From NCBI RefSeq assembly GCF_003334405.1, contig NZ_QOWM01000011.1: DNA of 64,000 nucleotides; one strand, written 5' to 3'. How positions within the stretch are numbered: the first letter of the stretch is position 1; the number at the start of each line of letters is the position of its first letter. This DNA is from Escherichia coli (GTDB taxonomy: Bacteria > Pseudomonadota > Gammaproteobacteria > Enterobacterales > Enterobacteriaceae). The translations under genes were made by a program, and so were the position numbers. This document shows positions 3,790-63,255 of this stretch, piece after piece. The notes below the pieces were generated by a model, which was not told the DNA's origin, searched no databases, and saw nothing but the letters and a program-made list of their open reading frames with translations.

Positions 3790-4257
3790 TCACTCACGGT
3801 GATAAGGATGGTTGGTGGTGATGCTCCACGCCCGGTACAGACTCTCTGCGACCAGCACGCGAACCAGCGGATGGGGGAGGGTAAGCGCCGACAGCGACCA
3901 GCTCTGCTCAGCCGCCGCTTTACAGGCAGGCGACAACCCTTCAGGCCCGCCAATCAGTAGACTGACGTCGCGACCATCCAGCTTCCAGCGTTCCAGCTCA
4001 GCGGCTAACTGCGGCGTATCCCAGGGCTTGCCTGGAATATCGAGGGTGACAATGCGGTTTTTGCCTGCGGCCGCCAACATCTGCTCACCCTCTTTGTCGA
4101 GTATGCGCTTGATGTCCGCATTCTTGCCGCGTTTTCCGGCCGGAATTTCAATCAGCTCGAAGGGCATATCTTTCGGAAAACGACGCAGGTACTCGGTAAA
4201 ACCGGTTTGTACCCAGTCCGGCATTTTCGTTCCCACGGCGACAAGTTGCAGCTTCAC
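3790..4257 (-). CDS. rlmH: 23S rRNA (pseudouridine1915-N3)-methyltransferase RlmH
   Basis: ORF track 155 aa, recognised RlmH (SPOUT) sequence. Confidence 0.93.
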
Positions 4258-4260
4258 GCA

Positions 4261-4596
<336 letters not shown>

Positions 4597-4837
4597 TCAA
4601 ATAGATAAAAATGGTCTGTCAGTATACCTGAACCAGAGGCGATTTCGGGACAATTGTCGCCGAATCGGCTTTCGAAAGTGGGCTATCATCCCACCCCGCG
4701 CCGCAGATTGCATCGCCATTTTTGTAAAACAATTTCTACAAAGTCGTGTCTGGCGGAAAAAGTCTGGCTGCGGAGAATATCAGCCTGCCCGGGTCTGTCA
4801 ATGGTCGTTGCGGCTTACCCGTAAAAAAACAGAAAAG

Positions 4838-5449
4838 TCATGCATTCTCGACCCCGATGGCACGGCTATTGAGGACGCGTAGCGTCGCGAATTTTTGGTT
4901 GATATCAATGGCGCTCCAACACCCCTGGTCAACGCGAAAATGCCACATAGCCTCGGCAGGCATGCCAATTAAACGGGCGATTAACAGACTCAGTACACCC
5001 TGATGGCTGACGACTAAAATATTCTGATAGTGCTGAAATTCACTAAGCCTTGCGATAAAGCGTTCCACACGTTGCGAAAATGCCTGAAATCCTTCACCGT
5101 TCGTGGGGATTGCATGCTGCCAGTCATTGCACCACGCGCTATAGTTTTCGGCATCTTCTTGCATGAGGTCGCGATGATGTCGCATCTCCCAGTCGCCAAA
5201 AAACATTTCGTTGAGTTCAGGTATGATTTGCACGGGGAGCTGGCGGTCACTGAGAACCAGTCGCGCGGTATGCTGTGCCCGTTCCAGTTCACTGCATAAA
5301 ACCAGATCAAAGGAAACACCATGTAGCAGCGTATGCAGATTTTGCGCTTGCTCAATACCGCGCGCGGTCAGGGGGGTGGGCGCATGACCGCTGTAAAGAC
5401 CATCGATATTCGCTTGCGTTTCACCATGACGAATTAACCACAGTCGCAT
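4838..5449 (-). CDS. cobC: Adenosylcobalamin/alpha-ribazole phosphatase (histidine phosphatase family)
   Basis: ORF track 4838..5452 (204 aa); RHGET phosphohistidine motif; start placed at the second Met (MRLWLIRHG) from memory of the 203-aa protein. Confidence 0.88.
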   Translation of the reverse strand: MRLWLIRHGETQANIDGLYSGHAPTPLTARGIEQAQNLHTLLHGVSFDLVLCSELERAQHTARLVLSDRQLPVQIIPELNEMFFGDWEMRHHRDLMQEDAENYSAWCNDWQHAIPTNGEGFQAFSQRVERFIARLSEFQHYQNILVVSHQGVLSLLIARLIGMPAEAMWHFRVDQGCWSAIDINQKFATLRVLNSRAIGVENA

Positions 5450-5472
5450 CATGCCCTCCGTAACGACAGGTA

Positions 5473-6114
5473 TCAGCGATACAAGCCTTGTTGGTTAATG
5501 TAAGTCAGTACCGGTTCCGGCAATAAATCCTCACATGATTCACCGTTTTGCAAACGTTCGCGGATGATGGTCGCCGAGATGTTAAACCACGGCGTTTCAG
5601 CCAGATAAATTTTACCGGCAGGCTGAAGGTGAAGATCTTCCGGGTTATGTGTCAAATGATCTTCCAGCCATTGCTGGTATTGCGGTTGCGCCATTTCAAG
5701 TGGGTAACCTGGACGCCGACAGACGATCAAATGTGCATTGTCGAGTATCGTTTCGTATTCGTACCAGGTCGGAAAGGTCAGCAGTGAATCCTGACCAATA
5801 ATAAACGCCAGCGGCACGTCCGGTCCTTGTTCCTGCCGCCACTCTTTCAGTGTTTGCGCAGTGTAAGAGGGGGCATTGCGCTTTAGCTCGCGTTCATCAA
5901 GAGTAAATAATGGCTTGTCGGCAATCGCCAGTTCAAGCATGTGTTTACGCTGCACGCTGTTCGCTTCCGGCTGGGGACGATGCGGAGGAACATTATTAGG
6001 GATGATTGTGACCCGCGTCAGACCAATCAAATTCGCCAGCGTTTCCACGGGTTTTAGATGACCATAGTGCACCGGATCAAAGGTGCCGCCAAACAGAGCC
6101 TGTAAAGATTTCAT
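5473..6114 (-). CDS. nadD: Nicotinate-nucleotide adenylyltransferase
   Basis: ORF track 213 aa; [11 protein letters not shown] nucleotidyltransferase motif. Confidence 0.93.
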
Positions 6115-6115
6115 A

Positions 6116-7147
6116 TCAACCGTCGATAAATACGTCCGCCAGGGGTTTATGGCACAACAGAAGAGATAACCCTTCCAGCTCTGCCCACACTGACTGACCG
6201 TAATCTTGTTTGAGGGTGAGTTCCGTTCGTGTCAGGAGTTGCACGGCCTGACGTAACTGCGTCTGACTTAAGCGATTTAACGCCTCGCCCATCATGCCCC
6301 GGCGGTTCTGCCATACCCGATGCTTATCAAACAACGCACGCAGTGGCGTATGGGCAGACTGGCGTTTCAGGTTAACCAGTAACAACAGTTCACGTTGTAA
6401 TGTGCGCAACAAAATAACCGGTTCGCTGCCTTCCAGACGCAGTTGCTGAAGAATATGCAATGCGCGCTTACTTTTTCCCATCAACAAAGCATCAACCCAA
6501 TGAAAAGGGGTGAAATGCGCGGCATCATTCACCGCCTGTTCAACGCGCGGTAATGTCAATTTGCCGTCTGGCCAGAGCAGCGATAAACGCTCCAGTGCCT
6601 GAGCCAGCGCCAGCAGGTTACCTTCATAACAGTAGCAGAGCACCTGATTTGCCGCGTCATCCAGTTCTAAGTTGAGCTGTTTTGCGCGCGCAGCAACCCA
6701 GCGGGGAAGCTGAGCCTGCTCCGGTGTCTGACAGGTCACCTGCACGCTGCGATTCGCAAGCGCAGTAAACCAGGCGGCATTTTCTTGCGCTTTGCTTAAT
6801 TTATTACCGCGGACGATCAACAGCAGGTCGTCATGCAGAAGTCCGGTGAGTGTGAGAAGTTGCTCATTGATCGCCGCATTCGGTCCGTTTTCTGGTAACA
6901 ACAGCAATAGCGTTTGTCGACTGGCAAACAGACTCATAGCCTGGCATAACGAAAAGATCGCATTCCAGTCAGTGTTGGGATCAATGGAAAAAGTGTGGTG
7001 TTCTTCGAATCCTTGTGCCGCAGCTACCTGACGAACAGCGTCCTGGCTTTCCTGCAATAACAGAGGATCGTTACCAAGTAAAAGATACGCCGCGCGCAGC
7101 CCTTCATTGAGCTGCGCGCGGAGTTGTTCCGGGTACAACCGAATCAT
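6116..7147 (-). CDS. holA: DNA polymerase III delta subunit
   Basis: ORF track 343 aa, recognised HolA sequence; follows lptE with 1-nt overlap. Confidence 0.92.
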
Positions 7148-7728
7148 CAGTTACCCAGCGTGGTGGAGACGCGTGCAGGCGTTGCCGGAGTATCCGTTGT
7201 GGTCGACGTCTGTTCTTCGTCGGAACGAATATCCGCAGCACGGATGCTTGGCAGCTTACGAATCAGCTGTTCGGCAGCACGGTCGTACATCTCTTTTACG
7301 ATCATGTCTTGTTCGTTATCTTTCGCTAACGCCATTTGCGGGTTATCGAAGAACGAACGGAAGACTTTGGCGCTAATCGGGTAGATATCACGGCCGGGGA
7401 TCAACACGGTCGCATTAACCGTCATGATCATCTGATACTCTGCTGTTTGACCGTTACGGAATACCGATGCGGTATCTTTCGCGATGCTCACTTTACCCAA
7501 ACGCAAGGATGGAACGTCCTTACGCGTGGTTTCTTTATCAAGCAACTCGACACCATTCAGACGTAACTGGTTACGCACCGCACGGCTTAATGGCCCGTTC
7601 GGATCGCCTGAGTCCAGGATCATGACCTTCATAGTGGAAGGAACCTGCGTGGTATCACGCAGATGCCAGCCACACCCGGCGGTGATTAACACCGCCAGAG
7701 ATAACAACAATGTTGCCAGATATCGCAC
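7147..7728 (-). CDS. lptE: LPS-assembly lipoprotein LptE
   Basis: ORF track 193 aa; lipobox LITAGC near N-terminus; directly downstream of leuS. Confidence 0.93.
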
Positions 7729-7742
7729 GCTTCCTCCCGCGC

Positions 7743-10325
7743 TTAGCCAACGACCAGATTGAGGAGTTTACCTGGTACGTAAATCACTTTACGTACAGTA
7801 ACGCCATCAAGATATTTTGCTACCAGATGTTCCTGGCCAGCACGTTCGCGAACCTGTTCTTCCGTTGCGTCCACCGGAACGGTGATTTTGGCACGGACTT
7901 TACCGTTAACCTGCACCACGACCAGCGTGGAGTCTTCCACCATCGCTTTTTCGTCAGCAACCGGCCACGGCGCGTTGTCGATATCGCCTTCGCCTTTCAG
8001 TTCCTGCCACAGCGTGAAGCAGATGTGCGGGGTGAACGGGTTAAGCATACGGACAACGGCCAGCAGTGCTTCCTGCATCAGAGCGCGATCCTGCTCGCCA
8101 TCGGTTGGTGCTTTCGCCAGTTTGTTCATCAGCTCCATAATCGCCGCAATTGCGGTGTTGAAGGTCTGACGACGGCCGATATCATCGGTCACTTTAGCGA
8201 TCGTTTTATGCACATCGCGACGCAGCGCTTTCTGATTTTCAGTCAGCGCATCAACGTTCAGTGCCGCAACATCACCTTTTGCTGTGTGCTCGTAAACCAG
8301 TTTCCAGACACGTTTCAGGAAGCGGTTAGCCCCTTCCACACCGGATTCCTGCCATTCGAGAGTCATATCAGCCGGAGAAGCAAACATCATAAACAGACGA
8401 ACGGTGTCCGCGCCGTAACGTTCAACCATCACCTGCGGGTCGATACCGTTGTTCTTCGACTTGGACATTTTGCTCATGCCGGTATAAACCAGTTCATGGC
8501 CTGCCGCATCTTTCGCTTTCACGATACGGCCTTTCTCGTCACGTTCAACGATAGCATCAACCGGGGAAACCCAGTTACGTTCGCCGTTTTCGCCAACATA
8601 GTAGAAGGCATCTGCCAGCACCATACCCTGACACAGCAACTGTTTCGCTGGTTCGTCAGAGTTCACCATGCCTGCATCACGCATCAGTTTGTGGAAGAAG
8701 CGGAAGTAGAGCAGGTGCATAATGGCGTGTTCAATACCACCAATGTAGATATCCACCGGCAGCCAGTAGTTAGCCGCTTCGGAATCCAGCATACCTTCTT
8801 TGTACTGCGGGCAAGTGTAGCGCGCATAGTACCAGGAGGACTCCATAAAGGTGTCGAAAGTGTCGGTTTCACGCAGTGCTGGCATACCGTTAACGGTAGT
8901 TTTCGCCCACTCCGGATCTGCTTTAATCGGGCTGGTAATGCCGTCCATTACCACATCTTCCGGCAGGATCACCGGCAGCTGGTCGTCCGGGGTCGGCATT
9001 ACGGTACCGTCTTCCAGCGTCACCATCGGAATCGGCGCGCCCCAGTAACGCTGACGGGAAACACCCCAGTCGCGCAGGCGGTAGTTCACTTTACGCTCGC
9101 CAACGCCCATCGCAGTCAGTTTATCGGCGATGGCGTTGAAGGCCGCTTCATGGTCAAGACCGTTGAACTCGCCAGAGTTGAACAGCACGCCTTTTTCAGT
9201 CAGGGCTTGCTGAGAAAGATCTGGCTCAGAGCCGTCAGCTGCCAGGATAACCGGTTTGATGTTCAGGCCGTATTTAGAGGCAAACTCGTAGTCGCGCTGG
9301 TCGTGCCCCGGTACCGCCATAACTGCGCCCGTGCCGTACTCCATCAATACGAAGTTTGCTGCCCAAACGGGAATTTCTTCGCCCGTTAATGGGTGAACCG
9401 CTTTAAAGCCAGTATCGACGCCTTTTTTCTCCATCGTCGCCATTTCAGCTTCGGCAACTTTGGTGTTACGGCATTCGTCAATAAAGGCCGCCAGTTCAGG
9501 ATTATTTTCCGCCGCTTTCTGCGCCAGCGGATGACCCGCAGCTACCGCCAGGTAGGTACAACCCATAAAGGTGTCCGGGCGGGTAGTGTAAACGGTCAGC
9601 GTGTTGTCATAGTCGTTAACGTTGAAGGTGATCTCCACGCCTTCGGAACGACCGATCCAGTTACGCTGCATGGTTTTAACGGTGTCTGGCCAGTGATCCA
9701 GTTTATCCAGATCGTTGAGCAGCTCGTCAGCGTAAGCAGTGATTTTGATAAACCACTGCGGGATCTCTTTACGTTCAACTTTAGTATCGCAGCGCCAGCA
9801 GCAGCCGTCGATAACTTGTTCGTTCGCCAGTACGGTCTGGTCGTTCGGGCACCAGTTGACCGCAGAAGTCTTCTTATATACCAGGCCTTTTTTATACAGC
9901 TCGGTGAAGAATTTCTGTTCCCAACGGTAGTATTCCGGCGTACAGGTTGCCAGCTCGCGGCTCCAGTCATAACCAAAGCCCAGCATTTTGAGCTGGTTTT
10001 TCATATACGCGATGTTGTCGTACGTCCACGGTGCCGGAGCGGTGTTGTTTTTCACCGCCGCGCCTTCCGCAGGCAGACCAAACGCGTCCCAGCCGATCGG
10101 CTGCAGGACGTTTTTGCCCAGCATACGCTGGTAGCGGGCGATCACGTCACCGATGGTGTAGTTACGTACGTGGCCCATGTGTAGTCGACCAGAAGGATAG
10201 GGAAGCATAGACAGGCAGTAATACTTCTCTTTGCTCTCGTCTTCGGTTACTTCAAATGTGCGCTTCTCATCCCAATGAAGCTGTACTTTGGATTCTATCT
10301 CTTCCGGGCGGTATTGCTCTTGCAT
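7743..10325 (-). CDS. leuS: Leucyl-tRNA synthetase
   Basis: ORF track 7743..10466 (907 aa); HMGH and KMSKS class I motifs; start placed at internal Met ([15 protein letters not shown]) giving 860 aa, matching recalled LeuS length. Confidence 0.93.
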
Positions 10326-10559: not shown

Positions 10560-11042
10560 ATGAACAAGGTTGCTCAATATTACCGTGAACTGGTTGCGTC
10601 ACTGAGCGAACGCCTGCGCAATGGCGAACGTGATATCGACGCACTGGTGGAACAGGCGCGCGAGCGCGTAATAAAAACAGGGGAGTTAACGCGAACCGAG
10701 GTCGATGAGCTGACGCGAGCTGTCAGACGTGACCTGGAAGAGTTCGCCATGAGCTATGAAGAGAGCCTGAAAGAAGAATCTGACAGCGTCTTTATGCGGG
10801 TGATTAAAGAAAGCTTGTGGCAGGAGCTGGCAGACATCACCGATAAAACGCAGCTTGAATGGCGCGAAGTTTTCCAGGACCTCAATCATCATGGGGTTTA
10901 TCACAGCGGAGAAGTGGTCGGGCTGGGAAATCTGGTCTGCGAGAAATGTCACTTCCATCTCCCGATCTACACACCGGAAGTGCTGACGCTATGCCCGAAA
11001 TGTGGTCATGACCAGTTCCAGAGACGCCCGTTTGAGCCGTAA
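10560..11042 (+). CDS. ybeL: YbeL, DUF1451-family protein with C-terminal CxxC...CxxC zinc-ribbon
   Basis: ORF track 160 aa; paired cysteine motifs CEKC...CPKC. Confidence 0.88.
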   Translation: MNKVAQYYRELVASLSERLRNGERDIDALVEQARERVIKTGELTRTEVDELTRAVRRDLEEFAMSYEESLKEESDSVFMRVIKESLWQELADITDKTQLEWREVFQDLNHHGVYHSGEVVGLGNLVCEKCHFHLPIYTPEVLTLCPKCGHDQFQRRPFEP

Positions 11043-11075
11043 TAGTCTGATTTCGCACAGCAATAAAGAGAATAT

Positions 11076-11108
11076 GGGCCGAATGAAATTCCCCGGCCCT
11101 TGTTTTTA
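11076..11108 (+). terminator. Putative intrinsic terminator downstream of ybeL
   Basis: Hairpin gggccg(11076-81)/cggccc(11094-99) followed by T-rich run ttgttttta. Confidence 0.55.
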
Positions 11109-11111
11109 TCT

Positions 11112-12095
11112 CTACAGTAAATCTTCAGTCTCACGAATTTCCTGACTGACATCTCTGGTTCCGGATGACTGAACTTTACGATACAGGTCGAGAGCCTGTC
11201 GGAGATCGACAGGTCTTCCTTCTCCGTAGTGATACATAATGGCCAGGTTATACCAGGCAGTGGCGTCATTGCATTCAGCGGCTTTCGTAAACCATTCAAA
11301 GGCAGCCTGATAATCTTTCTCAACGCCTTGTCCGTGTTTATACATATAACCGATGTTGACGTAAGCGCCGACGCTCCCCTGAGCGGCAGCCTTCAGATAC
11401 CAGTACATCGCTTGCTTATAGTCCTGGTCCACCCCTTCGCCAGCGTTATAATCCCATGCAATTTGAAACTGGGCGTGCCGATTACCCTGCTGTGCGCTTT
11501 TCAAATACCAGAATGCGGCGAGTGTCTTGTTTTGAGCAACGCCTTTTCCGTCTTCATAAAGATCGGCCAGATTGTTTTGCGCGTCACTATGGCCTTGTAA
11601 TGCAGCTTGTTTGTACCAGAAAAATGCCAGCGCATAGTCTTTTGCGACTCCGTTGCCATTTCTGTACATCCACCCAAGATTATTTTGCGCATAAGACATT
11701 CCGCTCTCCGCGGCTATCTGATACCAGACAACCGCTTCTTTATAATTGGGGGCTTCTCCACGATCCAGTGTCCAGCCAAGGGCGTTGGAAGCGAAAGTAT
11801 GGCCTTGTAGGGCAGCTTTTTTCAGCCAGAAGATGGCTTGCTCATTATCTTTATGACGGCTTTTATCCTCGGTATACTTTTGCCCTAAGGAATACTGTGC
11901 TTCACAATGACCTTGCTCAGCGGCCAGCTTCAGCCAGTAAAAGGCTTTTTCGTCGTCCGGAGAATCAATTGCGCTATCGCGATTATAATAAAACCCAACA
12001 ATATATTGAGCCTCGCAATCGCCTTTTTCAGCACGTTCGATAATCTCATCTATTGATAAATTATCGCAGCAACTTGACGTGAAAATCATTATCAT
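11112..12095 (-). CDS. ybeQ: Sel1-like repeat (SLR/TPR-like) protein YbeQ, no signal peptide
   Basis: ORF track 327 aa; repeated A..W...AA.QG...AQ..LG..Y..G.GV motifs; true start may be 2 codons downstream. Confidence 0.88.
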   Translation of the reverse strand: MIMIFTSSCCDNLSIDEIIERAEKGDCEAQYIVGFYYNRDSAIDSPDDEKAFYWLKLAAEQGHCEAQYSLGQKYTEDKSRHKDNEQAIFWLKKAALQGHTFASNALGWTLDRGEAPNYKEAVVWYQIAAESGMSYAQNNLGWMYRNGNGVAKDYALAFFWYKQAALQGHSDAQNNLADLYEDGKGVAQNKTLAAFWYLKSAQQGNRHAQFQIAWDYNAGEGVDQDYKQAMYWYLKAAAQGSVGAYVNIGYMYKHGQGVEKDYQAAFEWFTKAAECNDATAWYNLAIMYHYGEGRPVDLRQALDLYRKVQSSGTRDVSQEIRETEDLL

Positions 12096-12252
12096 TTCCT
12101 TATGGTTGCAGATAAAACATATTATATTTTTATGTGTTCCATTTTTGCGTAAGCCTTATTTTATGCGTATTATGTCGCGTCAGAAAAGTATAAATAAACG
12201 AGCCTCGCAATGCGGCTAATATTCATTTAATGAATATTTAAGGATAAATTAT

Positions 12253-12960
12253 ATGGACATGGAGTCGCAAAAAATATTGTTTGCACTTTCCACTCCGATG
12301 GAAATACGCAATGAATGCTGTTTACCTTCGCATTCATCACCCAAAATGTATTTAGGTACATGCTTTTTTGACCTTTCTTCCTCATGGGGAATTGATGACC
12401 GTGATGACCTGCTGCGCACAATTCACCGAATGATCGATAACGGTCATGCCGCTCGGTTGGCAGGGTTTTATCACCGCTGGTTTCGTTATTCGCCATGTGA
12501 ATGGCGTGACTATCTTGCTGAACTAAATGAGCAAGGTCAGGCTTATGCGCAATTTGTCGCCAGCACCGCCGAATGCTGTGGCGAAGGGGGAATCAAAGCC
12601 TGGGATTATGTCCGGATGGGTTTTTTAAGCCGAATGGGCGTACTTAATAACTGGTTGAGCGAAGAAGAAAGTCTATGGATCCAGTCGCGCATTCATCTAC
12701 GGGCTCTACGTTATTATAGTAACTGGCGGCAATACTTTGCCGGTTATACCTTTGGTCGGCAATATTGGCAGTCTCCCGAAGATGATCATCTGCCTTTATT
12801 ACGCGAATTCTTAGCGCGTAAAGAATACGACGATTCCGGCAATGATATGTTTTATCAATTATTTGCCAGTGATGATGCGTATTACCCTACCTTGTCCTGG
12901 CAACCATTGGCTTACTATTCTGCATGCCCGGAAACGCTTAAGGATATGAGCGACCTATGA
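12253..12960 (+). CDS. ybeR: DUF1266-family protein YbeR
   Basis: ORF track 235 aa; clear paralog of the ORF at 15050..15757; stop overlaps djlB start (ATGA). Confidence 0.9.
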
Positions 12961-14384
12961 AAAATTGCTGGAAGATCCTCGATATAGAGGAAACGACTGA
13001 CGTCGATATTATCCGCCGCGCTTATCTGGCGCTGTTACCGTCCTTTCATCCAGAAACCGATCCGCAGGGTTTTAAACAACTTCGTCAGGCGTATGAGGAG
13101 GCGCTACGGATTGCGCAGTCGCCTGCTAAATCTGTTTGGCAACCAGAAGAATATGAGGTAGCAGAACATGAAATTCTGCTCGCCTTTCGTGCGTTACTTG
13201 CCTCTGATAGTGAACGTTTTCTGCCCTCCGCCTGGCAGCGATTCATTCAGCAATTAAATTATTGCTCGATGGAGGAGATTGATGAATTACGCTGGTCGCT
13301 GTGCACAATCGCCATGAACACTGCCCATTTATCCTTCGAGTGCGTGGTGTTATTAGCAGAAAGATTGCGGTGGTTACAGGAGGAAAATACCGGGGAAATA
13401 GACGAAGAAGAACTGGAATCCTTTTTATATGCCATTGCGAAGGGGAATGTTTTTAACTTCCAGACCATTCTGCATCTGCCCGTTGCCGTGCAAAATGACA
13501 CCATCGATTTTTACCAAATGTTCGCTCGGATTTGGTCATCGCATCCACAATGGCTGACATTGTATTTAGCGCAACATCGCGCAGTGATTATCCCCGATGA
13601 TGCAAAACTGCACAGAAATTTACTCCGCTGGTATAGCGCAGGTCGCCTGGATATCCCCGAACTTCTGGATTACGCCCAGTCATGGCGGGAAACTGAACCT
13701 GATAATGAAGATGCGCCTTATTATGAATACGCGCAACGCGTCTATTGTGGAGAAGGCGAAAGCCTGTTGGCAGAACTTTGTGACTACTGGCGCGAGTATC
13801 CCTCCACCCAGGCGGATGCTTTAATGTTGCAATGGTGCCGTCAGCATCGGGTCGATTATTACCCATTACTGGTGATGATGATTGAAGCGCGTGATCTGGT
13901 TAACGATCAGGGAAAACCGCTACTTTATGTCCCCGGCGACAGCGCCCGTACGCGTTTTCATTTATACGAAATACTCAGCGATGAAAAACTCTCTGCGCTG
14001 GGGCGTTCACTGGTCGAGATGGTTTTGCACAAAGGACGTAAGCCGCGGATCTCACTCACGCGTGATACAGAACATACCTTATGGCCATTATATCTAGTTG
14101 CCAAACAATTAGTGCAGGCCTGCCAACCTACAGAAGAATCATTAATGCCGATTGTGAGCCGCCTTGATGCAGAAAATCGTTGTCCACTGGAAGCATTAAT
14201 TATTCGTCGATTATTAATTCAGGCGGCGAATTTTACCGAGAAGCAAACTGTTGAACCGGAGCCGCAACCGCAGCCAATGCCCGTTGACGATGGTGGGCCA
14301 GGCTGTCTGGGCATCATTAAAATTATTTTCTATATTTTTATCTTTGCTGGTTTGATAGGGAAAATACTCCATCTGTTCGGGTGA
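12957..14384 (+). CDS. djlB: J-domain-like co-chaperone DjlB (YbeS) with C-terminal hydrophobic anchor
   Basis: ORF track 475 aa; N-terminal J-like region ...[21 protein letters not shown]...; C-terminal hydrophobic tail [23 protein letters not shown]. Confidence 0.88.
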
Positions 14385-14393
14385 CAGTCGACG

Positions 14394-14948
14394 TTAATGT
14401 GCGGGAAGCCCGGCAAGTAATCTTTCCGCATTTTTGTAATGTTGTTTGGCGGCCAGTTTTAACCATTTTTGAGATTCATAATGGTTAACATTAATACCTG
14501 AGCCATTTCTGTAGATCAAACCTAAAGTATATTGAGCATGAGCATACCCTTGTTCAGCTGCTTCCTTATACCAGAGAATTGCTTTACGGGTGTCGGGTTT
14601 GACCCCCAGACCTTTGAGGTAGATCCACCCCAGTTTACTTTGCGCGCGTGGATTTTCCTGTTCCGCTGATTGCTCATACCAGTATCTCGCCTGTGTATAA
14701 TCCAGTGGTTTACCGTCGCTACCATGAAGATAAAATTCTCCAAGGCGATATTGCGACGTTGAGTGACCATGAATCGCGGAAAGCTCCGTGGCTGCCGTGG
14801 TGAATGGAAGACTGCCCGGTGAGCTTAAATAATCAAAGGCATAATTCACCATGGCTTTATCACGCAACGTCGTTTTCTTGGGTTGGCTAATACAGGTAAT
14901 TGCTGCAACTATAAAAATTGCGAATATATACATTAATTTTTTATTCAT
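14394..14948 (-). CDS. ybeT: Sel1-like repeat protein YbeT with N-terminal signal/possible lipoprotein signal
   Basis: ORF track 184 aa; N-terminus [19 protein letters not shown]...; Sel1-like repeats. Confidence 0.88.
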
Positions 14949-15049
14949 GTGTGAATGCTTCGATTTTCTTTTTATTTTGAAAGCGTCAAGTTTATACTCA
15001 TCAATAATAAAAAAGTAGTCAGTTAATGCACTTAAGGGATTATTAACAA

Positions 15050-15757
15050 ATGAATAAGGAAGAACAATATCTTCTTTTTGCGCTTTCTGCGCCCATGGAA
15101 ATACTTAATCAGGGTTGCAAACCCGCGCATGACTCGCCAAAAATGTATACTGGGATAAAAGAATTCGAGCTCTCATCATCCTGGGGAATAAATAATCGTG
15201 ATGATTTAATTCAGACTATTTATCAGATGACTGATGATGGTCATGCCAATGATTTAGCTGGCTTATATCTGACATGGCATCGCTCTTCCCCTGAAGAGTG
15301 GAAAGCATTAATTGCTGGTGGCTCGGAGAGAGGGTTGATTTATACCCAATTCGTTGCCCAAACCGCTATGTGCTGTGGGGAAGGGGGAATCAAAGCCTGG
15401 GATTATGTTCGAATGGGGTTTCTGTCACGGGTCGGTGTGCTCAACAAGTGGCTGACGGAAGAAGAGAGTTTATGGCTGCAATCGCGCGTCTATGTACGAG
15501 CTCACCATTACTATCACAGCTGGATGCACTATTTTTCCGCCTATTCGTTAGGACGTCTCTACTGGCAATCTTCTCAGTGCGAAGACAACACTTCGCTACG
15601 CGAGGCGCTAACCCTGTACAAATACGATAGCGCCGGGAGTCGTATGTTCGAAGAGCTGGCAGCGGGAAGCGATCGTTTCTATGCCACGCTTCCCTGGCAG
15701 CCATTAACTGTCCAGTCTGAATGCCCGGTAACGCTTAAGGATGTGAGCGACCTATGA
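15050..15757 (+). CDS. ybeU: DUF1266-family protein YbeU (paralog of YbeR)
   Basis: ORF track 235 aa; aligns along its length with YbeR; stop overlaps djlC start. Confidence 0.9.
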
Positions 15758-17205
15758 AAACATGTTGGCAAATCCTCGAAATTGAAAGCACGACGCAAAT
15801 AGACATTATCCGCCAGGCTTATCTTGCTCGCTTACCGTTGTGTCATCCCGAAACCGATCCGCAAGGGTTTAAAGCATTACGCCAGGCCTATGAAGAGGCC
15901 CTGCGACTGGCGGTAAATCCTGTCGAGGAAGCAGATGATGAAGAAAAAGATGCTGCCGCTGAACATGAAATACTACGTGCATTCAGGACATTACTGGATT
16001 CAGAAAGTGATCGTTTTCAGCCTTCCGCCTGGCAGAAATTTATTCAGCAATTAAATACCTGGAACATGGAGGATGTCGATCAATTACGCTGGCCGCTGTG
16101 TGCAATCGCCATAGAAGCGCGATATCTTTCATTAAATTGTGCTTCTTTGCTGGCAGAGCGTTTGAACTGGCATTCATTTAATGACAGCGAAGGAATGGAT
16201 GAGGAAGAAAGGGAGGCTTTTCTTGAGGCCATTCAGGCTGGTGATTGTTTCGATTTCCTTAGCCTTCTGGAATATCCCATTGCGTTGCAGAACCAGACTG
16301 TTGAGTATTACTTCGCGCTGGAACGTTGCTGCCGTTACCATCCTGACTATGTCACTGCGTTTTTGGCGATGGAAGGTCCGTGGTTAATTCCTGATGATGC
16401 AAAGTTACATCGCAAACTGTTGCGCTGGTACAGCTCGGTGCAAACAGGTATGGCGGAACTCATTCCTGTCGCTCAACAGTGGCAAACGGAAGAACCAGAA
16501 AGCGAAGATGCCCGGTATTACTTGTGTGCACAACGTTTGTACTGCGGCGAGGGGGAAAGCCTGCTTGCCGATCTCTGCGCGTACTGGGAAAGTTACCCAT
16601 CTACACAAGCTGATAATTTGTTGTTGCAGTGGAGCAAGCGTCATTGCCCGGATTATTTCGCGTTATTAGTGATGGTTATCGAAGCGCGGAGCATGGTAGA
16701 TGCGCAAGGTCAACCGCTGAAATATGTTCCTGGTGAGAGCGCCCGGACGCGGCTGTTATGGGCGGAGATTTTACATAGCGGAAAATTATCGCCGTTAGGT
16801 CAATCGTTTATTGAGTCGTTATTCTTCAAGCGCAAAGCATGGGCGTGGTGGAAATCGAGAGTCGGTAGCGAGACAGAGCAAGATTCACCGTTCCTGGATT
16901 TGTATCGGGTAGCGGAACAGGTAGTACTTGAAGCGTTTCCGAAACAAGAGATGCTGGCCCGTCTTAATACAAGGCTGGAAGGCGGAGATGCTCATCCATT
17001 AGAGGCCATTGTCACCCGGATGCTTTTGACGAAAGTGAAACTCGAGCCGGAGGATGAAGATGTCGATGAGCCAACACCTGAAAATCATGAAGAAAAAAAT
17101 GATGAGGGTGAAAAACCACAGAGCATTACCAGCATTATCAAAATCAGTTTAACGGTGCTGGTGATAGGTTATGCTCTCGGCAAAATCGCGATGTTGTTTA
17201 GCTGA
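15754..17205 (+). CDS. djlC: J-domain-like co-chaperone DjlC (YbeV) with C-terminal hydrophobic anchor
   Basis: ORF track 483 aa; N-terminus nearly identical in pattern to DjlB ([10 protein letters not shown]); C-terminal hydrophobic segment. Confidence 0.88.
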
Positions 17206-17226
17206 CGATGTGTTTTTTGCGCCGAT

Positions 17227-17257
17227 GCCGGATGCAGCGTTTACGCCGCATCCGGCA
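17227..17257. repeat. REP (repetitive extragenic palindrome) element
   Basis: gccggatgcagcgtttacgccgcatccggca imperfect palindrome between convergent djlC and hscC. Confidence 0.7.
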
Positions 17258-17264
17258 GCCGTGT

Positions 17265-18935
17265 TTATGGGATCTCAATGGCTAAATAATCGCTCGCCCG
17301 CCGCCGAACTTCATCCACGCGGGCCATATCGTTTGACTGCAACGCCGCATCAAAATCGGTGATCACCCGGCCGATCTCTTCTCGCTCGTCACCCAGCGCC
17401 CGCGCCCACAACTCTTCCAGTTTGGCTTTAAAGGTGCGATTGATGAGCATATCGCGCGGATAAATTTTCAATGCGGATAACCGCGTCCGACTCTCTTCAA
17501 TCTGCTGCGCGCTCAATGTTACCGGGCTGTGGTTAATCACTCTGGACTTAACGCTGCCGTCTTCCAGAAGCACGTCAACTTCAAGCAACCCGTTGATATC
17601 ATAACTAAAGCGAATATCAATCGACTGATAAGCCCCGGTTTTCTTCAACGGCACATCGAAGGATTCCACCAGAATGTTGTTTTTAACTTTGTGGTTTTCT
17701 CCCTGATAGACGTTAACCGTAATTGAATCCTGTTCCGGGTGCATGGTTGAATAAGTTTCTACACGCGACACGGGCACAGTGGTGTTTCGTTCAATAATCG
17801 GCGAGAAAATGCCGGAAACGCCCTGGCGGTTAACTTCAACGCCCAACGAGTAAGGGCAAATATCAGTGAGGATTACCTCTTCAATATCTTCACTGCGTAA
17901 GCGGCAGGCGGCCTGGATTGCTGCGCCCAGCGCGACAATGGTGCTCGGATCGTAACTTTGATACGGTAATTTGCCAAACAGACGCACGGCGATTCGCTGC
18001 ACCAGCGGCATTTGTGACGCGCCGCCAACCAGCACCAGACTGTCGATTTGACTCGGCTTCAGACGCGCATCGCGCAACGCCTGTTCAATCGGCACTCGCA
18101 AGCGATTGAGCAGCGGCAACCACAAATCTTCCAGTTCGTTCTCGTAAAATTCGCATTCCCGCGTTTCTTCCTGATACTGCCAGCGAATGTGCAATGGCGA
18201 TTGATTGCTACATTTTGCCGCTTCCACACAGGCGTACAAGGCTGCCAGTTCACTCTCGTTAAGCGTGGTCCTGGCGACATCCGCGCGTTTTAAAACCTCA
18301 TCGACCAGCATATGGGTAAAATCTTCGCCACCAAGAAAGTTGTCGCCAGCGGAGGCGTGAACTTCAATCACCGGCGTGGCGTACTCAAGCACCGTAACGT
18401 CAAACGTGCCGCCACCGAGATCAAACACCAGCGAACGGGTATTTTGTTGGGTATGCAGGCCATACGCCATCGCAGCTGCTGTGGGTTCATTAATTAAGCG
18501 TACCGCATTTAACCCGGCTAACTCCGCTGCTAAACGGGTATGCTTGCGTTGTTCATCGCTGAAATAAGCCGGAACGGAGATCACCACATCTTTAATCGGA
18601 CGTTGCAGAAATTCTTCGGCATCTTCTTTTAATGAGCGTAATACCAAAGAGGACAGTTCTGGCGCGTTAAATGTGTCGCTGCCTAACCGCCAGTTGGTAT
18701 TACTGCCCATTGCACGTTTAAATAACGCTGCCGTTTTATCCGGATGCGAAGTACGCCGTGATACAGCCGGTTTTCCGACTAAAATATGATTATTTTCATC
18801 CATGCTAATTATGGATGGTGTTAAATATTCACCGAACTTATTTGGAATTAATTGCGCGGCACCGTCTTTCCAGACGGCAATTAAACTATTGGTAGTACCG
18901 AGATCGATACCAATGGCGAGTTCTGCATTATCCAT
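17265..18935 (-). CDS. hscC: Hsp70-family chaperone HscC
   Basis: ORF track 556 aa; Hsp70 ATPase signatures (IGIDLGTTNS, DLGGGTFD); length matches HscC. Confidence 0.93.
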   Translation of the reverse strand: MDNAELAIGIDLGTTNSLIAVWKDGAAQLIPNKFGEYLTPSIISMDENNHILVGKPAVSRRTSHPDKTAALFKRAMGSNTNWRLGSDTFNAPELSSLVLRSLKEDAEEFLQRPIKDVVISVPAYFSDEQRKHTRLAAELAGLNAVRLINEPTAAAMAYGLHTQQNTRSLVFDLGGGTFDVTVLEYATPVIEVHASAGDNFLGGEDFTHMLVDEVLKRADVARTTLNESELAALYACVEAAKCSNQSPLHIRWQYQEETRECEFYENELEDLWLPLLNRLRVPIEQALRDARLKPSQIDSLVLVGGASQMPLVQRIAVRLFGKLPYQSYDPSTIVALGAAIQAACRLRSEDIEEVILTDICPYSLGVEVNRQGVSGIFSPIIERNTTVPVSRVETYSTMHPEQDSITVNVYQGENHKVKNNILVESFDVPLKKTGAYQSIDIRFSYDINGLLEVDVLLEDGSVKSRVINHSPVTLSAQQIEESRTRLSALKIYPRDMLINRTFKAKLEELWARALGDEREEIGRVITDFDAALQSNDMARVDEVRRRASDYLAIEIP

Positions 18936-19018
18936 TGCATTTATATCTTGAAAGAAAAAGAGATAAACAGATTAAGACCACCCAGGTAACGCGTGGTGAT
19001 CTTAATCAATGACGTGTG

Positions 19019-30772: not shown

Positions 30773-30847
30773 TGGCTGGGGTACGAGGATTCGAACCTCG
30801 GAATGCCGGAATCAGAATCCGGTGCCTTACCGCTTGGCGATACCCCA
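30773..30847 (-). tRNA. glnV: tRNA-Gln (anticodon CUG); glnV/glnX type
   Basis: 75 nt; revcomp TGGGGTATCGCCAAGCGGTAAGGCACCGGATTCTGATTCCGG...CCCCAGCCA; anticodon loop TTCTGAT. Only one CUG copy present, so glnV versus glnX is ambiguous. Confidence 0.93.
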
Positions 30848-30894
30848 ACAAATTGGTTTTGAATTTGCCGAACATATTCGACACATTCAGAATT

Positions 30895-30971
30895 TGGTGG
30901 CTACGACGGGATTCGAACCTGTGACCCCATCATTATGAGTGATGTGCTCTAACCAACTGAGCTACGTAGCC
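30895..30971 (-). tRNA. metU: tRNA-Met elongator (anticodon CAU)
   Basis: 77 nt; revcomp GGCTACGTAGCTCAGTTGGTTAGAGCACATCACTCATAATGATGGGGTCACAGGTTCGAATCCCGTCGTAGCCACCA. Confidence 0.93.
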
Positions 30972-30986
30972 AGATTGTTTCTTCGA

Positions 30987-31061
30987 TGGCTGGGGTACCT
31001 GGATTCGAACCAGGGAATGCCGGTATCAAAAACCGGTGCCTTACCGCTTGGCGATACCCCA
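30987..31061 (-). tRNA. glnU: tRNA-Gln (anticodon UUG); glnU/glnW type
   Basis: 75 nt; anticodon loop TTTTGAT in revcomp; only one UUG copy present, so glnU versus glnW is ambiguous. Confidence 0.93.
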
Positions 31062-31084
31062 TCCGTACAACGCTTTCTGGTGAA

Positions 31085-31169
31085 TGGTGCGGGAGGCGAG
31101 ACTTGAACTCGCACACCTTGCGGCGCCAGAACCTAAATCTGGTGCGTCTACCAATTTCGCCACTCCCGC
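31085..31169 (-). tRNA. leuW: tRNA-Leu (anticodon UAG)
   Basis: 85 nt with long variable arm; revcomp GCGGGAGTGGCGAAATTGGTAGACGCACCAGATTTAGGTTCTGG... Confidence 0.93.
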
Positions 31170-31178
31170 AAAAAAAGA

Positions 31179-31255
31179 TGGTGGCTACGACGGGATTCGA
31201 ACCTGTGACCCCATCATTATGAGTGATGTGCTCTAACCAACTGAGCTACGTAGCC
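31179..31255 (-). tRNA. metT: tRNA-Met elongator (anticodon CAU)
   Basis: 77 nt; identical in sequence to the tRNA at 30895..30971. Confidence 0.93.
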
Positions 31256-49533: not shown

Positions 49534-50028
49534 ATGAAGACCAACAGGAGTCTGGTCGTCATAGTGTCACTAATTACCGCCACATTACTGCTGACTGCAT
49601 GCGCCCAACCTGAACAATCATCATTAGCTGGCGACTGGTTACTGACCCCTAAAGATAAAACCAGAGGATTAACGGGTAGCATTGCGGTAAATATTGCACC
49701 TTTCCGGTGTAAGACAAATTGCCGTGGTGATAACTTACCTGATAATACCCGCCGCTGGCAGTTGTCAGGCGGGAACGAAAAAGAACTTACTTATCTTCAT
49801 AATATGTCAGCACAAGAAAAGGTCGGTTTAAATCCCGGTTGGCAATGCTACACCTCATTTTTTATGCGGGTTTGCCAGGGCAAGCCCGGCACTCGACCGA
49901 TAGTCAATGAGGATTATGTCAGCGAAAGCGGATTTTTTGGCTCGATGATGCATGTCGGGATTATTGAGTTACGACGCTGCCAGTCAGAAAATTGCCAGCA
50001 AGAATTGAAAGCGATAAATACACATTAA
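49534..50028 (+). CDS. ybfP: Lipoprotein YbfP
   Basis: ORF track 164 aa; lipobox LLLTAC. Confidence 0.88.
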   Translation: MKTNRSLVVIVSLITATLLLTACAQPEQSSLAGDWLLTPKDKTRGLTGSIAVNIAPFRCKTNCRGDNLPDNTRRWQLSGGNEKELTYLHNMSAQEKVGLNPGWQCYTSFFMRVCQGKPGTRPIVNEDYVSESGFFGSMMHVGIIELRRCQSENCQQELKAINTH

Positions 50029-50068
50029 AATAGTGAGTCCGGGAATGAAACCCGGACCTGAACATGTC

Positions 50069-50827
50069 TTATTGCGTGAATGTTTCTTTCATTTGATACT
50101 GCATTTCCCAGAGTTCAGTAAGCGAAATAACTTTTCTTGTTCTTGCTTCTTCACTTTGTACCCATAAGAAAGGGTAGAACGTGAAGGCTTCCGTTGCCGA
50201 TAATTTTATTACGTCTTCTCGCCATTGCTGCCATCGTACATTTTCATAGAAGGTATCTAAATCACCGGATAATGCCCACTGAAGAAACTCAGAATATCCA
50301 ACTTCCAGACTTTCCCAATTCAGCGTATCTGGCGCAAAATAATAAACGCAGCCAGTATCTTCCCCAAGATCGCCACCATTAAGAGCAAAAATTCCCCCTG
50401 CGACATCGTCAGCGATGGGTAAAGCCCGCACGCCTGCGAATTCAGGGCGTTGTGTCCAACTTACTGGATCTCGTGGCAACCGGGGGTGACCAGATCCTGC
50501 TATGCGTAACCAACCATTATCAATCAGCAGACCTCCGGAGCCATAGACAAGCGCACCCATCGGTGATTTTGTTGTCACCTGTAATTGATAAAGTGCGGTT
50601 TCGGCTAAATCTTTATTAACCGGTAAGAGTTCGGTATGGTTTGTGGCGTCTTTTAACCAGTTCTGGATTATTGGCCAGGCTGAATCTTCAGTATTTACTA
50701 ACTGATTCATTTCACGCATCGCTACTTGCTCCTTGTGTGCTACGGTGTCATTTATGATGAGGAATTGTATGGAACATTTTTTAAATATTAAGTTCCTTAT
50801 ATTTGAATAAAAAATGACTTTATCCAT
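50069..50827 (-). CDS. ybfG: YbfG-like DUF2625-family protein, reading frame intact over 252 codons
   Basis: ORF track 252 aa; family assignment from memory. I recall this locus as a pseudogene in K-12, so intactness here should be checked. Confidence 0.65.
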   Translation of the reverse strand: MDKVIFYSNIRNLIFKKCSIQFLIINDTVAHKEQVAMREMNQLVNTEDSAWPIIQNWLKDATNHTELLPVNKDLAETALYQLQVTTKSPMGALVYGSGGLLIDNGWLRIAGSGHPRLPRDPVSWTQRPEFAGVRALPIADDVAGGIFALNGGDLGEDTGCVYYFAPDTLNWESLEVGYSEFLQWALSGDLDTFYENVRWQQWREDVIKLSATEAFTFYPFLWVQSEEARTRKVISLTELWEMQYQMKETFTQ

Positions 50828-50842
50828 ACATTGCCACTTTTT

Positions 50843-50986
50843 TCAAAGCATAAACCGATACCCAATACCGGTTTCAGTAATAAAATGGCGAGGCCGGGCC
50901 GGATCCTGTTCCAGTTTTTGTCGCAGATGCCCCATATAATTACGCAAATAGTTGCTGTGTTCGATCGCGTTTAGACCCTACATCTG
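50843..50986 (-). pseudogene. ybfI: Fragment homologous to the 3' end of kdpE (ybfI-like gene remnant)
   Basis: About 90% nucleotide identity to 55178-55320 (the last ~48 codons of kdpE), e.g. tcaaagcataaaccgata[c/g]ccaataccggtttcagtaat[a/g]aaatggcg; no intact ORF. Confidence 0.65.
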
Positions 50987-54944: not shown

Positions 54945-55115
54945 TTAATTTACCTTTCCTGATGTGAATGAAGGTGAAGATATTCTATCCAGGAAATACG
55001 GTTGAACTGTGAAGGTGATCAATAAAAAATGATCAATCTTAATTTATTTAATGATGAGCTTTTTACTCAGTAATATAAAATATTGAATTGTTATTTTTGT
55101 GTGTTGTTTAAGATA

Positions 55116-55143
55116 AAAAGCCGTATTTATTATTACGGCTTTA
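55116..55143. terminator. Terminator hairpin downstream of kdpE (end of kdp operon)
   Basis: aaagccgta-tttatta-tacggcttt with flanking A and T runs, 35 bp past the kdpE stop. Confidence 0.6.
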
Positions 55144-55177
55144 ATTAATAAAAGGCAGGCTGTATTAAAATTAATAT

Positions 55178-62943: not shown

Positions 62944-63016
62944 AGTGCACCTCCAGTGGCCTAAAAGTGATACCGGAAGGGTAGAATTCTGGCTGCAAAG
63001 ATTTCGCAAAAATCTG

Positions 63017-63047
63017 CGGGCGGGGTGTAAAAAAAGTATAAAAATGG
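63017..63047 (-). promoter_or_regulatory. KdpE-binding site of the kdpFABC promoter
   Basis: Revcomp reads CCATTTTTATACTTTTTTTACACCCCGCCCG, matching the KdpE operator as I recall it; about 75 bp upstream of the kdpF start. Confidence 0.5.
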
Positions 63048-63255
63048 CAAAAGCCATGATTTAACTAATGTTTAGTATTAATTTAACTTTTGTGTAACTT
63101 AATTACAGGATGAATGTAAATAAACCATCAATAAGCAAAAATAAGTGGTCGGATGAGTAGTAAAATTACACAAAAGGCGGTACTATTTTCATCAGATAAA
63201 CAAATTCATTTTTCCGGTGCCATTCACCGGGTAGATACAAAAGGGGGAGAAAAGT

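Follow-up and report, generated by a model that had tools for sequence, protein, structure and literature searches.

The HscC-DjlC/DjlB system of Escherichia coli is a specialised Hsp70 system (Kluck et al. 2002; reviewed in PMC8215388). The literature consulted on it is centred on the chaperones, and we found no description there of the conserved DUF1266 partner gene, the Sel1 genes or the structure of the promoters. A second described system is the silencing by H-NS and counter-silencing by SlyA or LeuO of K-12 loci such as hlyE, casABC and cryptic fimbrial operons (elf, yad and yeh). The binding of H-NS to the ybe cluster, the response of the cluster to SlyA and its hns-dependent repression are already known from published genome-wide data.

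The window, the whole stretch of 64,000 nucleotides analysed here, comes from a K-12-like E. coli chromosome. Its gene map was built by BLAST mapping, and the locus has the order leuS-ybeL-[ybeQ<>ybeR-djlB, ybeT<>ybeU-djlC, hscC]-rihA (Table 1). The genes hscC, djlB and djlC are the same as those of the described chaperone system, and in the RefSeq annotation the HscC-type Hsp70 gene adjoins the genes of its J-domain partners. The Hsp70 profile scores of HscC lie under the equivalog cut-offs for DnaK and HscA. DjlB and DjlC are 50% identical, and both contain an HPE J-domain and a C-terminal tail anchor. The reading frames of ybeR and djlB overlap by four nucleotides. The only repeats at the locus are those of an internal duplication with a spacing of 2797 nucleotides, and the two modules are just ~67-77% identical in DNA, which indicates that the duplication is old. 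The DUF1266-J-protein...hscC arrangement is kept as far as Pseudomonas. Fusion of Sel1 to the long J-proteins of Pseudomonas and Limnobaculum would link YbeQ and YbeT to DjlB and DjlC; no Sel1 repeats are present in those proteins.

Table 1. Features of the ybe cluster and of its two divergent regions, in window positions.
Feature	Position	Strand	Description
ybeQ	11112..12089	-	Sel1-repeat protein; GC 0.470; RefSeq annotation, Sel1/TPR-type NCBIfam matches
AT-rich tract 1	12030..12317		5' end of ybeQ, spacer and 5' end of ybeR; proposed H-NS nucleation region
ybeQ<>ybeR divergent spacer	12090..12252		163 bp; GC 0.288
Predicted ybeQ sigma-70 promoter	12155..12183	-	CTGACG-17-AATAAG; sequence from PMC3946193 Table 1, exact match in window
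ybeR	12253..12960	+	DUF1266 protein; GC 0.458; 59% identical to YbeU
djlB	12957..14384	+	Tail-anchored J-domain protein with HPE motif; GC 0.475; PMC8215388, PMC10410713
ybeT	14394..14948	-	Short Sel1/TPR protein with hydrophobic N-terminus; GC 0.429
AT-rich tract 2	14870..15092		5' end of ybeT, spacer and 5' end of ybeU; minimum GC 0.22
ybeT<>ybeU divergent spacer	14949..15049		101 bp; GC 0.277
ybeU	15050..15757	+	DUF1266 protein; GC 0.476
djlC	15754..17205	+	Tail-anchored J-domain co-chaperone of HscC; GC 0.477; PMC8215388
REP-like hairpin	17226..17257		Between convergent djlC and hscC; inverted repeat, 15-nt arms, 93% complementary
hscC	17265..18935	-	Specialised Hsp70; GC 0.500; convergent with djlC
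FNR-box-like site	18996..19009	+	GTGATCTTAATCAA; one mismatch; ~67 nt upstream of hscC start codon

The original prediction placed AT-rich divergent regions at 12096-12252, between ybeQ and ybeR, and at 14949-15049, between ybeT and ybeU. Both coordinates are correct, and the low GC content was confirmed. The first interval is delimited by the longest ybeQ reading frame, whereas the RefSeq start of ybeQ extends it to 12090. The two AT runs that had been quoted as examples were located within 12120-12149 (ttatatttttatgtgttccatttttgcg) and 14960-14990 (ttttctttttattttgaaagcg). The GC content of the ybeQ/ybeR spacer is 0.293 over 157 bp and 0.288 over 163 bp, and that of the ybeT/ybeU spacer is 0.277 over 101 bp, compared to 0.512 for the whole window. 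The promoter-proximal DNA is thus clearly more AT-rich than the host (0.28-0.29), as expected of an H-NS-silenced locus. Among the 35 window spacers that are 40 bp or longer, the two have the second and third lowest GC, and both are about two standard deviations below the mean of the remaining 33 (0.445, sd 0.078). They are also the two lowest of the seven divergent spacers of the window (chance 1/21), the other five of which have GC of 0.36-0.46. Sliding windows of the same length are equally AT-rich in only 0.5-0.8% of cases. On the basis of this one window, the low GC of the spacers has only modest statistical significance (p~0.05). The case is founded on conservation across other species and on experiments from the literature.

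The orthologous spacers of three other Escherichia species have GC of 0.22-0.30. Spacer identity across the Escherichia species is 90-92%, on par with that of the flanking genes. In Salmonella, the divergent spacer has a GC of 0.258, whereas the genes of the cluster have host-like values of 0.51-0.54. The combination of host-like genes with a spacer of ~26% GC indicates that the AT-rich spacer has been maintained as a regulatory feature and is not merely a relic. For the same reason, foreign origin cannot be concluded from the AT-richness of spacers alone.

The AT-rich tracts, defined by 100-nt windows with GC of at most 0.30, are wider than the spacers (~220-290 bp) and extend over the promoters and into the initial codons of the genes on either side. 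With its default threshold, a sigma-70 promoter scan detected no site in either spacer, and fewer sites in the cluster than in shuffled sequences; at a lenient threshold, the spacers contained only 8-of-12 matches. The high-affinity H-NS motif TCGATAAATT, with up to two mismatches allowed, has 101 matches in the whole window compared to 65 expected. The motif scan did not single out the spacers and showed no clear concentration of matches there. Near-matches are grouped at 12000-12067, with another at 12241, which is weak evidence. An operator shared by the two spacers was considered, and their alignment contained dispersed AT matches and one short TCAnTTAATGnA block near the start codons of the DUF1266 genes, which is insufficient to define one.

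Published tables mark both promoter regions as bound by H-NS, based on ChIP and genomic SELEX, in agreement with the occupancy that had been predicted. In Table 2 of Curran et al. 2017 (PMC5797941), H-NS binding is denoted by "K" at ybeT and by "K, O" at ybeU-djlC; the labels refer to the Kahramanoglou and Oshima ChIP data, and the K-12 occupancy is thus cited second-hand from tables. The genomic SELEX table of Shimada et al. 2014 (PMC3946193 Table 1) marks an H-NS site in the ybeQ/ybeR spacer. The same spacer is listed as binding the RpoD holoenzyme, and the ybeT/ybeU spacer is absent from the RNA polymerase-binding spacers shown in that table (PMC3946193 Table 1). In the table of top hits of Prieto et al. 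2020 (PMC7582179), deletion of hns upregulates the gene EC042_RS03510 by 308.5-fold at 25 °C and by 4.0-fold at 37 °C, and in a delta-hns2 mutant the increases are 8.2- and 5.0-fold. We verified that EC042_RS03510 is ybeR at the same locus, and the ybeQ/ybeR spacer of strain 042 is identical to that of the window at 156 of 163 positions. The derepression documented in that table is for ybeR and for strain 042. With binding and hns-dependent repression both on record, the cluster is neither free of H-NS nor constitutively expressed. The proposal that silencing explains the scarcity of laboratory phenotypes fits with the concentrations of HscC, DjlB and DjlC, which in exponential phase are less than 0.1 µM and below proteomic detection (PMC8215388). 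The conclusion that H-NS keeps the cluster off is therefore supported by published data; it is correct and not new.

It is likely that both AT-rich regions are bidirectional regulatory regions of H-NS-silenced paralogous units, which were acquired in the distant past and have maintained their AT-rich spacers. The two old transcription units are ybeQ<>ybeR-djlB and ybeT<>ybeU-djlC, which together with hscC encode the specialised chaperone system of HscC (Hsp70) and DjlB-DjlC with its Sel1-repeat and DUF1266 partners. According to the literature, H-NS occupies the tracts and represses transcription, with a far greater effect at 25 °C than at 37 °C. H-NS may nucleate in the tracts and spread or bridge across both divergent promoters, excluding or trapping RNA polymerase. 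Expression would then require an H-NS antagonist to lift the silencing, as suggested by the overproduction of SlyA, which increases the expression of ybeT 4.1-fold and that of ybeU-djlC 2.8-fold (PMC5797941 Table 2), the direct binding of SlyA being putative. The motif search for the SlyA box TTAN6TAA identified none in either spacer, and GFP fusions of ybeT and ybeU are outside the robust SlyA responders (PMC7417354), so the effect of SlyA on ybeT and ybeU-djlC may be indirect. FNR may act on hscC, Crl/sigma-S on djlC and the sRNA OmrA on ybeT, as gene-specific inputs that are each based on a single report.

The predicted contrast between the cluster and the surrounding core genes is evident in both GC content and codon usage. 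The seven cluster genes have GC of 0.43-0.50, with ybeT the lowest (0.429), and a mean of 0.469, compared to 0.521 for the 45 other genes of the window. The GC at third codon positions is 0.461 in the cluster and 0.573 in the other genes, and the fractions of rare codons are 0.116 and 0.056, respectively. The differences in GC, GC3 and codon usage between the cluster and the 45 genes are significant (Mann-Whitney p = 2-4e-4). In addition, the six 7.8-kb segments of the window with the most deviant dinucleotide signature all overlap the cluster. The composition and codon usage of the cluster are thus unlike those of the flanking core genes, as in genomic islands; however, weak selection on a seldom-expressed cluster could explain its low GC instead of foreign origin.

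The presence of the cluster varies among strains, which is another property of genomic islands. The gene hscC was found in 4377 of 5426 complete E. coli genomes (~81%), ybeT-ybeU in 4246, ybeQ-ybeR in 3813 and the whole cluster in 3663 of them. A clean empty site is present in 963 of the 5426 genomes, including that of CFT073, and contains only a REP-like hairpin and no scar. The cluster is not absent from this site in sister species and genera, as it would be after a recent gain: it occupies the same ybeL/rihA site in Salmonella enterica and in three Escherichia species besides E. coli. Escherichia whittamii and the two other Escherichia species share both the site and the gene order, and Salmonella has the cluster without ybeT. 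In Klebsiella spallanzanii, a single module is located between ybeL and gltL. One Escherichia species carries a third, frameshifted Djl-like gene at the same site. Neither an integrase, a transposase, a tRNA target nor flanking direct repeats were detected by inspection of the window annotation and a repeat search, and the cluster has no GIST or IslandViewer flag in Curran's table (PMC5797941). The cluster proteins of E. coli and Salmonella are 50-83% identical, compared to 91-95% for the proteins encoded on either side of the cluster. In Pseudomonas and Budviciaceae, homologous modules have GC at the level of their hosts. The sporadic distribution of HscC has already been interpreted as the result of horizontal transfer (PMC8215388). 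The most fitting description of the cluster is that of an ancient accessory segment located where variation has recurred. The foreign origin put forward in the original prediction thus stands as an ancient event only, and the AT-rich spacers fail as proof of it because of the Salmonella spacer. A compositionally atypical segment would have entered the ybeL/rihA site before the divergence of Escherichia and Salmonella, become duplicated there, and then been inherited vertically, with losses in some lineages of E. coli. The spacers would be held AT-rich by selection since they serve as the regulatory switch.

Alternatively, divergent promoter spacers could be AT-rich in general, in which case the two spacers would be ordinary promoter DNA of no foreign character to which H-NS binds passively owing to the AT content, and the GC and GC3 of the genes could result from weak selection on seldom-expressed genes and AT-biased mutation. 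The Salmonella locus, in which the AT-richness of the spacer is separable from the composition of the genes, is in line with this explanation, as are the host-level GC of the Pseudomonas and Budviciaceae modules, the lack of mobility signatures and of island predictions, and the within-window p-value of just ~0.05. However, the other five divergent spacers of the window have GC of 0.36-0.46, the cluster is missing at a clean junction in ~18-19% of E. coli genomes, its proteins have diverged much more rapidly than those of the flanks, and its phyletic distribution is sporadic. Furthermore, a 308-fold derepression of ybeR in delta-hns is not the outcome of passive binding. We consider the explanation by ordinary promoter DNA unlikely.

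Somewhat less probable still is that specific regulators (FNR, Crl/sigma-S, SlyA and LeuO) exert the main control, with the spacers AT-rich because of the binding sites of these regulators and the cluster uninduced in standard media. Binding of FNR to hscC in vivo has been reported (PMC2690998), which together with the FNR-like box upstream of hscC and a second near-match at 14991-15004, inside the ybeT/ybeU spacer, speaks for control by specific regulators; however, the FNR motif occurs four times in the window compared to 2.9 expected, which is chance level without enrichment. DjlC was reported to be Crl-dependent and ybeT was listed among the targets of the sRNA OmrA, in a single report each. 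The inputs from FNR, Crl and OmrA can operate alongside H-NS silencing and are no substitute for it, and the removal of hns alone is sufficient for the 308-fold rise of ybeR.

The module of Sel1, DUF1266, tail-anchored J-protein and HscC could also be a conflict-type system, such as an envelope-linked defence or stress response triggered by phage or foreign proteins, and not a housekeeping chaperone, which we regard as very improbable. Hints in this direction are the identities of only 50-64% between the partner proteins of E. coli and Salmonella, compared to 91-95% in the flanks, the patchy presence of the cluster, and the accumulation of related genes at one site. In a transposon screen with phage Arnold, insertions in ybeT were strongly enriched and a clean ybeT deletion behaved as wild type, which would fit with insertions activating silent neighbours. 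Comparison of the cluster with the PADLOC defence profiles identified no defence family, only a weak TPR-type match to PtuA. The only known phenotypes, cadmium and UV sensitivity (PMC8215388), count against a conflict-type function. If the module did have such a function, silencing would mask a costly activity.

Hardly any weight can be given to the cluster being a recent genomic island that was delivered by a mobile element and silenced as new DNA with its donor composition retained, as might be suggested by the low GC, atypical codon usage, presence/absence polymorphism within E. coli and a single truncated ybeT'-ybeU fragment in a multiresistance plasmid, since the occurrence of the cluster at the same site in other genera already refutes this for the most part, and it is opposed by the shared site and gene order in E. 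whittamii and two other Escherichia species, the old duplication of the modules, the absence of an integrase, tRNA and direct repeats, the scarless empty site with only a REP-like hairpin, and the match of just 12 of 72,556 plasmid records, most of which resemble mislabelled chromosomal pieces.

The AT-rich spacer and the foreign gene are separate matters, as Salmonella keeps an AT-rich switch despite host-like cluster genes. The cluster has occupied this site since ancient times, and strains of the CFT073 type have lost it. Searches for phenotypes of HscC, DjlB, DjlC and their DUF1266 and Sel1 partners should be performed in hns or low-temperature-derepressed backgrounds, and not in wild-type cultures.

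The ybe cluster resembles classical genomic islands, which are tRNA-linked, integrase-bearing and strain-specific, in its atypical composition and variable presence, but differs from them in having no tRNA, integrase or direct repeats, and in occupying the same site in other genera. In comparison with the K-12 loci controlled by H-NS and SlyA, the ybe cluster lacks a SlyA consensus box, is located outside of predicted islands, shares its site with Salmonella, and encodes chaperones and not surface structures or toxins. It shares with these loci AT-rich promoter regions, several of which are divergent, appears in the same ChIP listings, and shows increased expression upon SlyA overproduction in the same experiment (PMC5797941 Table 2). 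The ybe cluster is also like them in that its silencing is stronger at 25 °C than at 37 °C and its products are undetectable in culture.

The region 11000–19000 of the window is a 100% match to E. coli K-12-like chromosomes, and the positions of the genes, which were assigned by BLAST re-mapping, agree with the names and coordinates of the original prediction. The cluster is organized into two modules. In each, a Sel1-repeat gene is divergent from a pair of genes, encoding a DUF1266 protein and a J-protein, that overlap by 4 nt. The modules are old paralogues, with 59% identity between YbeR and YbeU, 50% between DjlB and DjlC, and about 36% between YbeQ and YbeT across their repeats. DNA identity between the two modules is 67–77%, in a register of 2797 nt. 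DjlB and DjlC share a J-domain of the HPE variant and are membrane-anchored at the C terminus. The djlC and hscC genes are convergent and are separated by a REP-like hairpin.

Genes of the ybe cluster and its flanks in the window
Gene	Position	Strand	Arrangement
leuS			before ybeL
ybeL	10560–11042	+	
ybeQ	11112–12089	-	divergent from ybeR
ybeR	12253–12960	+	
djlB	12957–14384	+	
ybeT	14394–14948	-	divergent from ybeU
ybeU	15050–15757	+	
djlC	15754–17205	+	
hscC	17265–18935	-	followed by rihA

The ybeQ/ybeR and ybeT/ybeU spacers have GC contents of 0.29 and 0.277, respectively, compared to 0.512 for the whole window, and both AT runs quoted in the original prediction are present. Among the 35 window spacers of at least 40 bp, the two rank second and third lowest in GC, behind only the speFL-kdpE spacer, and they are the two lowest of the seven divergent spacers; such a ranking, by itself and in one window, gives only about p = 0.05. 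Just 0.5–0.8% of same-length sliding windows are equally AT-rich. The tracts with GC of 0.30 or less (12030–12317 and 14870–15092) are broader than the spacers and extend into the initial codons of each of the four flanking genes. Compared with the 45 other window genes, the seven cluster genes differ in GC (0.469 against 0.521), GC3 (0.461 against 0.573), and the share of rare codons (0.116 against 0.056; Mann–Whitney p = 2–4e-4), and the six 7.8-kb segments with the most deviant dinucleotide signature all overlap the cluster. The predicted contrast with the surrounding genes is confirmed.

The window contains additional AT-rich and accessory features. The speFL-kdpE spacer (54945–55177) is its most AT-rich (GC 0.258, minimum 0.18 per 100 nt), and the kdpF/ybfA spacer (62944–63255), marked as an H-NS site in Table 1 of PMC3946193, includes a tract with a GC of 0.22. 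A second low-GC islet at 49534–50977 contains a lipoprotein gene (GC 0.455), a DUF2625 gene (GC 0.444, GC3 0.367), a winged-helix pseudogene, and an AT-rich spacer (50718–50888). In CFT073 the islet is missing and pgm is directly followed by potE; therefore, the islet is likewise accessory. The tRNA cluster after ubiF (30773–31255) has five genes (Gln, Met, Gln, Leu, Met), and seven in CFT073 and the otherwise near-identical WG5, which looks like a deletion through recombination between repeated tRNA-Gln/Met units.

Silencing of the cluster by H-NS, proposed in the original prediction, is well supported because published data include H-NS marks, a rise of ybeR expression in an hns mutant, and undetectable proteins; it has been published before. 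For K-12, the ChIP evidence comes second-hand from tables of other papers: those of Curran et al. 2017 mark ybeT and ybeU-djlC as H-NS-associated from the Kahramanoglou 2011 and Oshima 2006 data, and the same genes belong to the 30 operons whose expression SlyA overproduction alters (4.1-fold and 2.8-fold, respectively; PMC5797941). Neither spacer contains a SlyA box, and in subsequent work the ybeT and ybeU fusions were not among the robust responders to SlyA (PMC7417354). In genomic SELEX, RNA polymerase holoenzyme binds the ybeQ/ybeR spacer, which holds an H-NS site, and the ybeQ promoter was assigned as CTGACG-17-AATAAG (Shimada et al. 2014, PMC3946193); we located it at 12155–12183. According to Prieto et al. 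2020 (PMC7582179), expression of the 'DUF1266 protein' gene EC042_RS03510 rises in delta-hns by 308.5-fold (25 °C) and 4.0-fold (37 °C), and mutation of hns2, the third paralogue, raises it 8.2- and 5.0-fold. We identified this gene from the RefSeq annotation of strain 042 as ybeR in the same gene arrangement, with an upstream spacer identical to that of the window at 156 of 163 positions; the hns-mutant fold change covers one gene in one strain. HscC, DjlB, and DjlC are under the detection limit in exponential-phase proteomics (PMC8215388). Others have established the H-NS association, the strong temperature-dependent repression of ybeR by H-NS, the induction by SlyA overproduction, and the very low protein levels. 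The present analysis establishes how far the AT-rich tracts extend and how conserved they are, the contrast in composition, the distribution within the population and across genera, and which gene of strain 042 is concerned. The original finding is correct and its interpretation sound, and the biology is ordinary and already documented.

Candidates for other regulatory inputs include an FNR-like box (GTGATCTTAATCAA, 18996–19009) about 67 nt upstream of the hscC start codon, and a second, weaker one within the ybeT/ybeU spacer; FNR motifs occur at chance level across the window. DjlC is Crl-dependent. A published listing gives ybeT as a target of OmrA that occurs in just 8 of 27 genomes.

Whether the spacers are AT-rich and whether the cluster is foreign are two different questions. 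The DUF1266, Djl, and hscC genes of the Salmonella cluster match their flanks in GC (0.51–0.54), but the divergent spacer still has 0.258. Escherichia whittamii and two further Escherichia species carry a cluster of the same low GC at this site; there both spacers have GC of 0.22–0.30 and are 90–92% conserved, on par with the neighbouring coding sequence. The low GC of the spacers therefore seems to be a regulatory property under selection rather than only a remnant of donor composition.

The predicted foreign origin is supported for an ancient event. It is favoured by atypical composition, patchy presence, and diverged proteins: E. coli and Salmonella share 83% identity in HscC, 64% in YbeR, 62% in YbeU, 59% in DjlC, 51% in DjlB, and 50% in YbeQ, compared to 91–95% in the flanking LeuS, YbeL, RihA, and GltL. 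A review has already taken the sporadic distribution of HscC as horizontal transfer (PMC8215388). The shared site speaks against a recent event: it holds the cluster in the three other Escherichia species, one operon in Salmonella (ybeQ-like divergent from DUF1266-Djl-DUF1266-Djl, without ybeT), and a single module in Klebsiella spallanzanii. Annotation and a repeat search detected no integrase, tRNA, or flanking repeat at the cluster, which was also unflagged by island predictors according to Curran et al. 2017 (PMC5797941). The homologous DUF1266-J-protein...hscC module has host-like GC in Pseudomonas and Budviciaceae, and the triad is kept across the distant hosts Pseudomonas mendocina and Limnobaculum; we found no published account of this conservation within the accessible literature. 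At these two loci (L012 10696–13356, L014 10711–13434), no divergent Sel1 gene was detected by tblastn (E<=1e-8), and the J-proteins encoded beside DUF1266, 886–907 aa in length, combine a DjlB/C-like N-terminal half with a lengthy extension that has several membrane segments at its end.

A survey of 5,426 complete E. coli genomes places hscC in 4,377, ybeT-ybeU in 4,246, ybeQ-ybeR in 3,813, and the entire 8 kb cluster in 3,663. In 963 genomes, including CFT073, ybeL adjoins rihA across a 44-bp REP-like spacer without a scar, and some genomes have lost module 1 alone. We infer an ancient acquisition, and the best reading is that the cluster was subsequently duplicated in place and vertically inherited, with losses in certain lineages of E. 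coli. A plasmid search indicated negligible carriage. Plasmid A of E. coli D3 (NZ_CP010141.1, 172824–174041; 174 kb, multiresistance) has a truncated TPR pseudogene divergent from a ybeU fragment. Over 222 residues the fragment's protein is 98.6% identical to YbeU, and the strA-strB-sul2 region cuts the piece short.

Gene content varies on either side of the cluster. In Salmonella (L024), additional genes lie between leuS and ybeL (3798–8276), namely KdgT, a sigma-54 activator, and a dehydratase-like gene, and a gene of 412 aa without a recorded Pfam hit lies between hscC and rihA (16082–17320). The ybeL-ybeQ gap of Escherichia sp. MOD1-EC7003 (L005 3648–5986) contains a gene for a 321-aa secreted protein and an extra, frameshifted DjlB/C-like J-protein gene with an HPE motif and C-terminal anchor; therefore, the ybeL/rihA gap seems to collect J-protein modules.

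A silenced, fast-evolving, and patchy module could be read as a conflict-type system, which we consider very improbable; the reading draws on one hint from a transposon screen. In a 2025 preprint, ybeT insertions were among the five most enriched in BW25113 challenged with phage Arnold, and the Keio ybeT deletion behaved like the wild type. Readthrough from the insertions into silent neighbours might account for this. PADLOC found no defence-family match among the cluster genes.

Under H-NS silencing, the protein would nucleate in the two AT-rich tracts and spread or bridge across both divergent promoters, and H-NS antagonists would act directly. Among natural isolates, LR-71-1 carries an IS1 in the ybeQ/ybeR spacer (equivalent to 12090–12252), ET650 carries one in the ybeT/ybeU spacer (equivalent to 14949–15049), and a further isolate has one within hscC. 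Silent operons, for example bgl, can be activated by IS insertion into AT-rich, H-NS-bound spacers.
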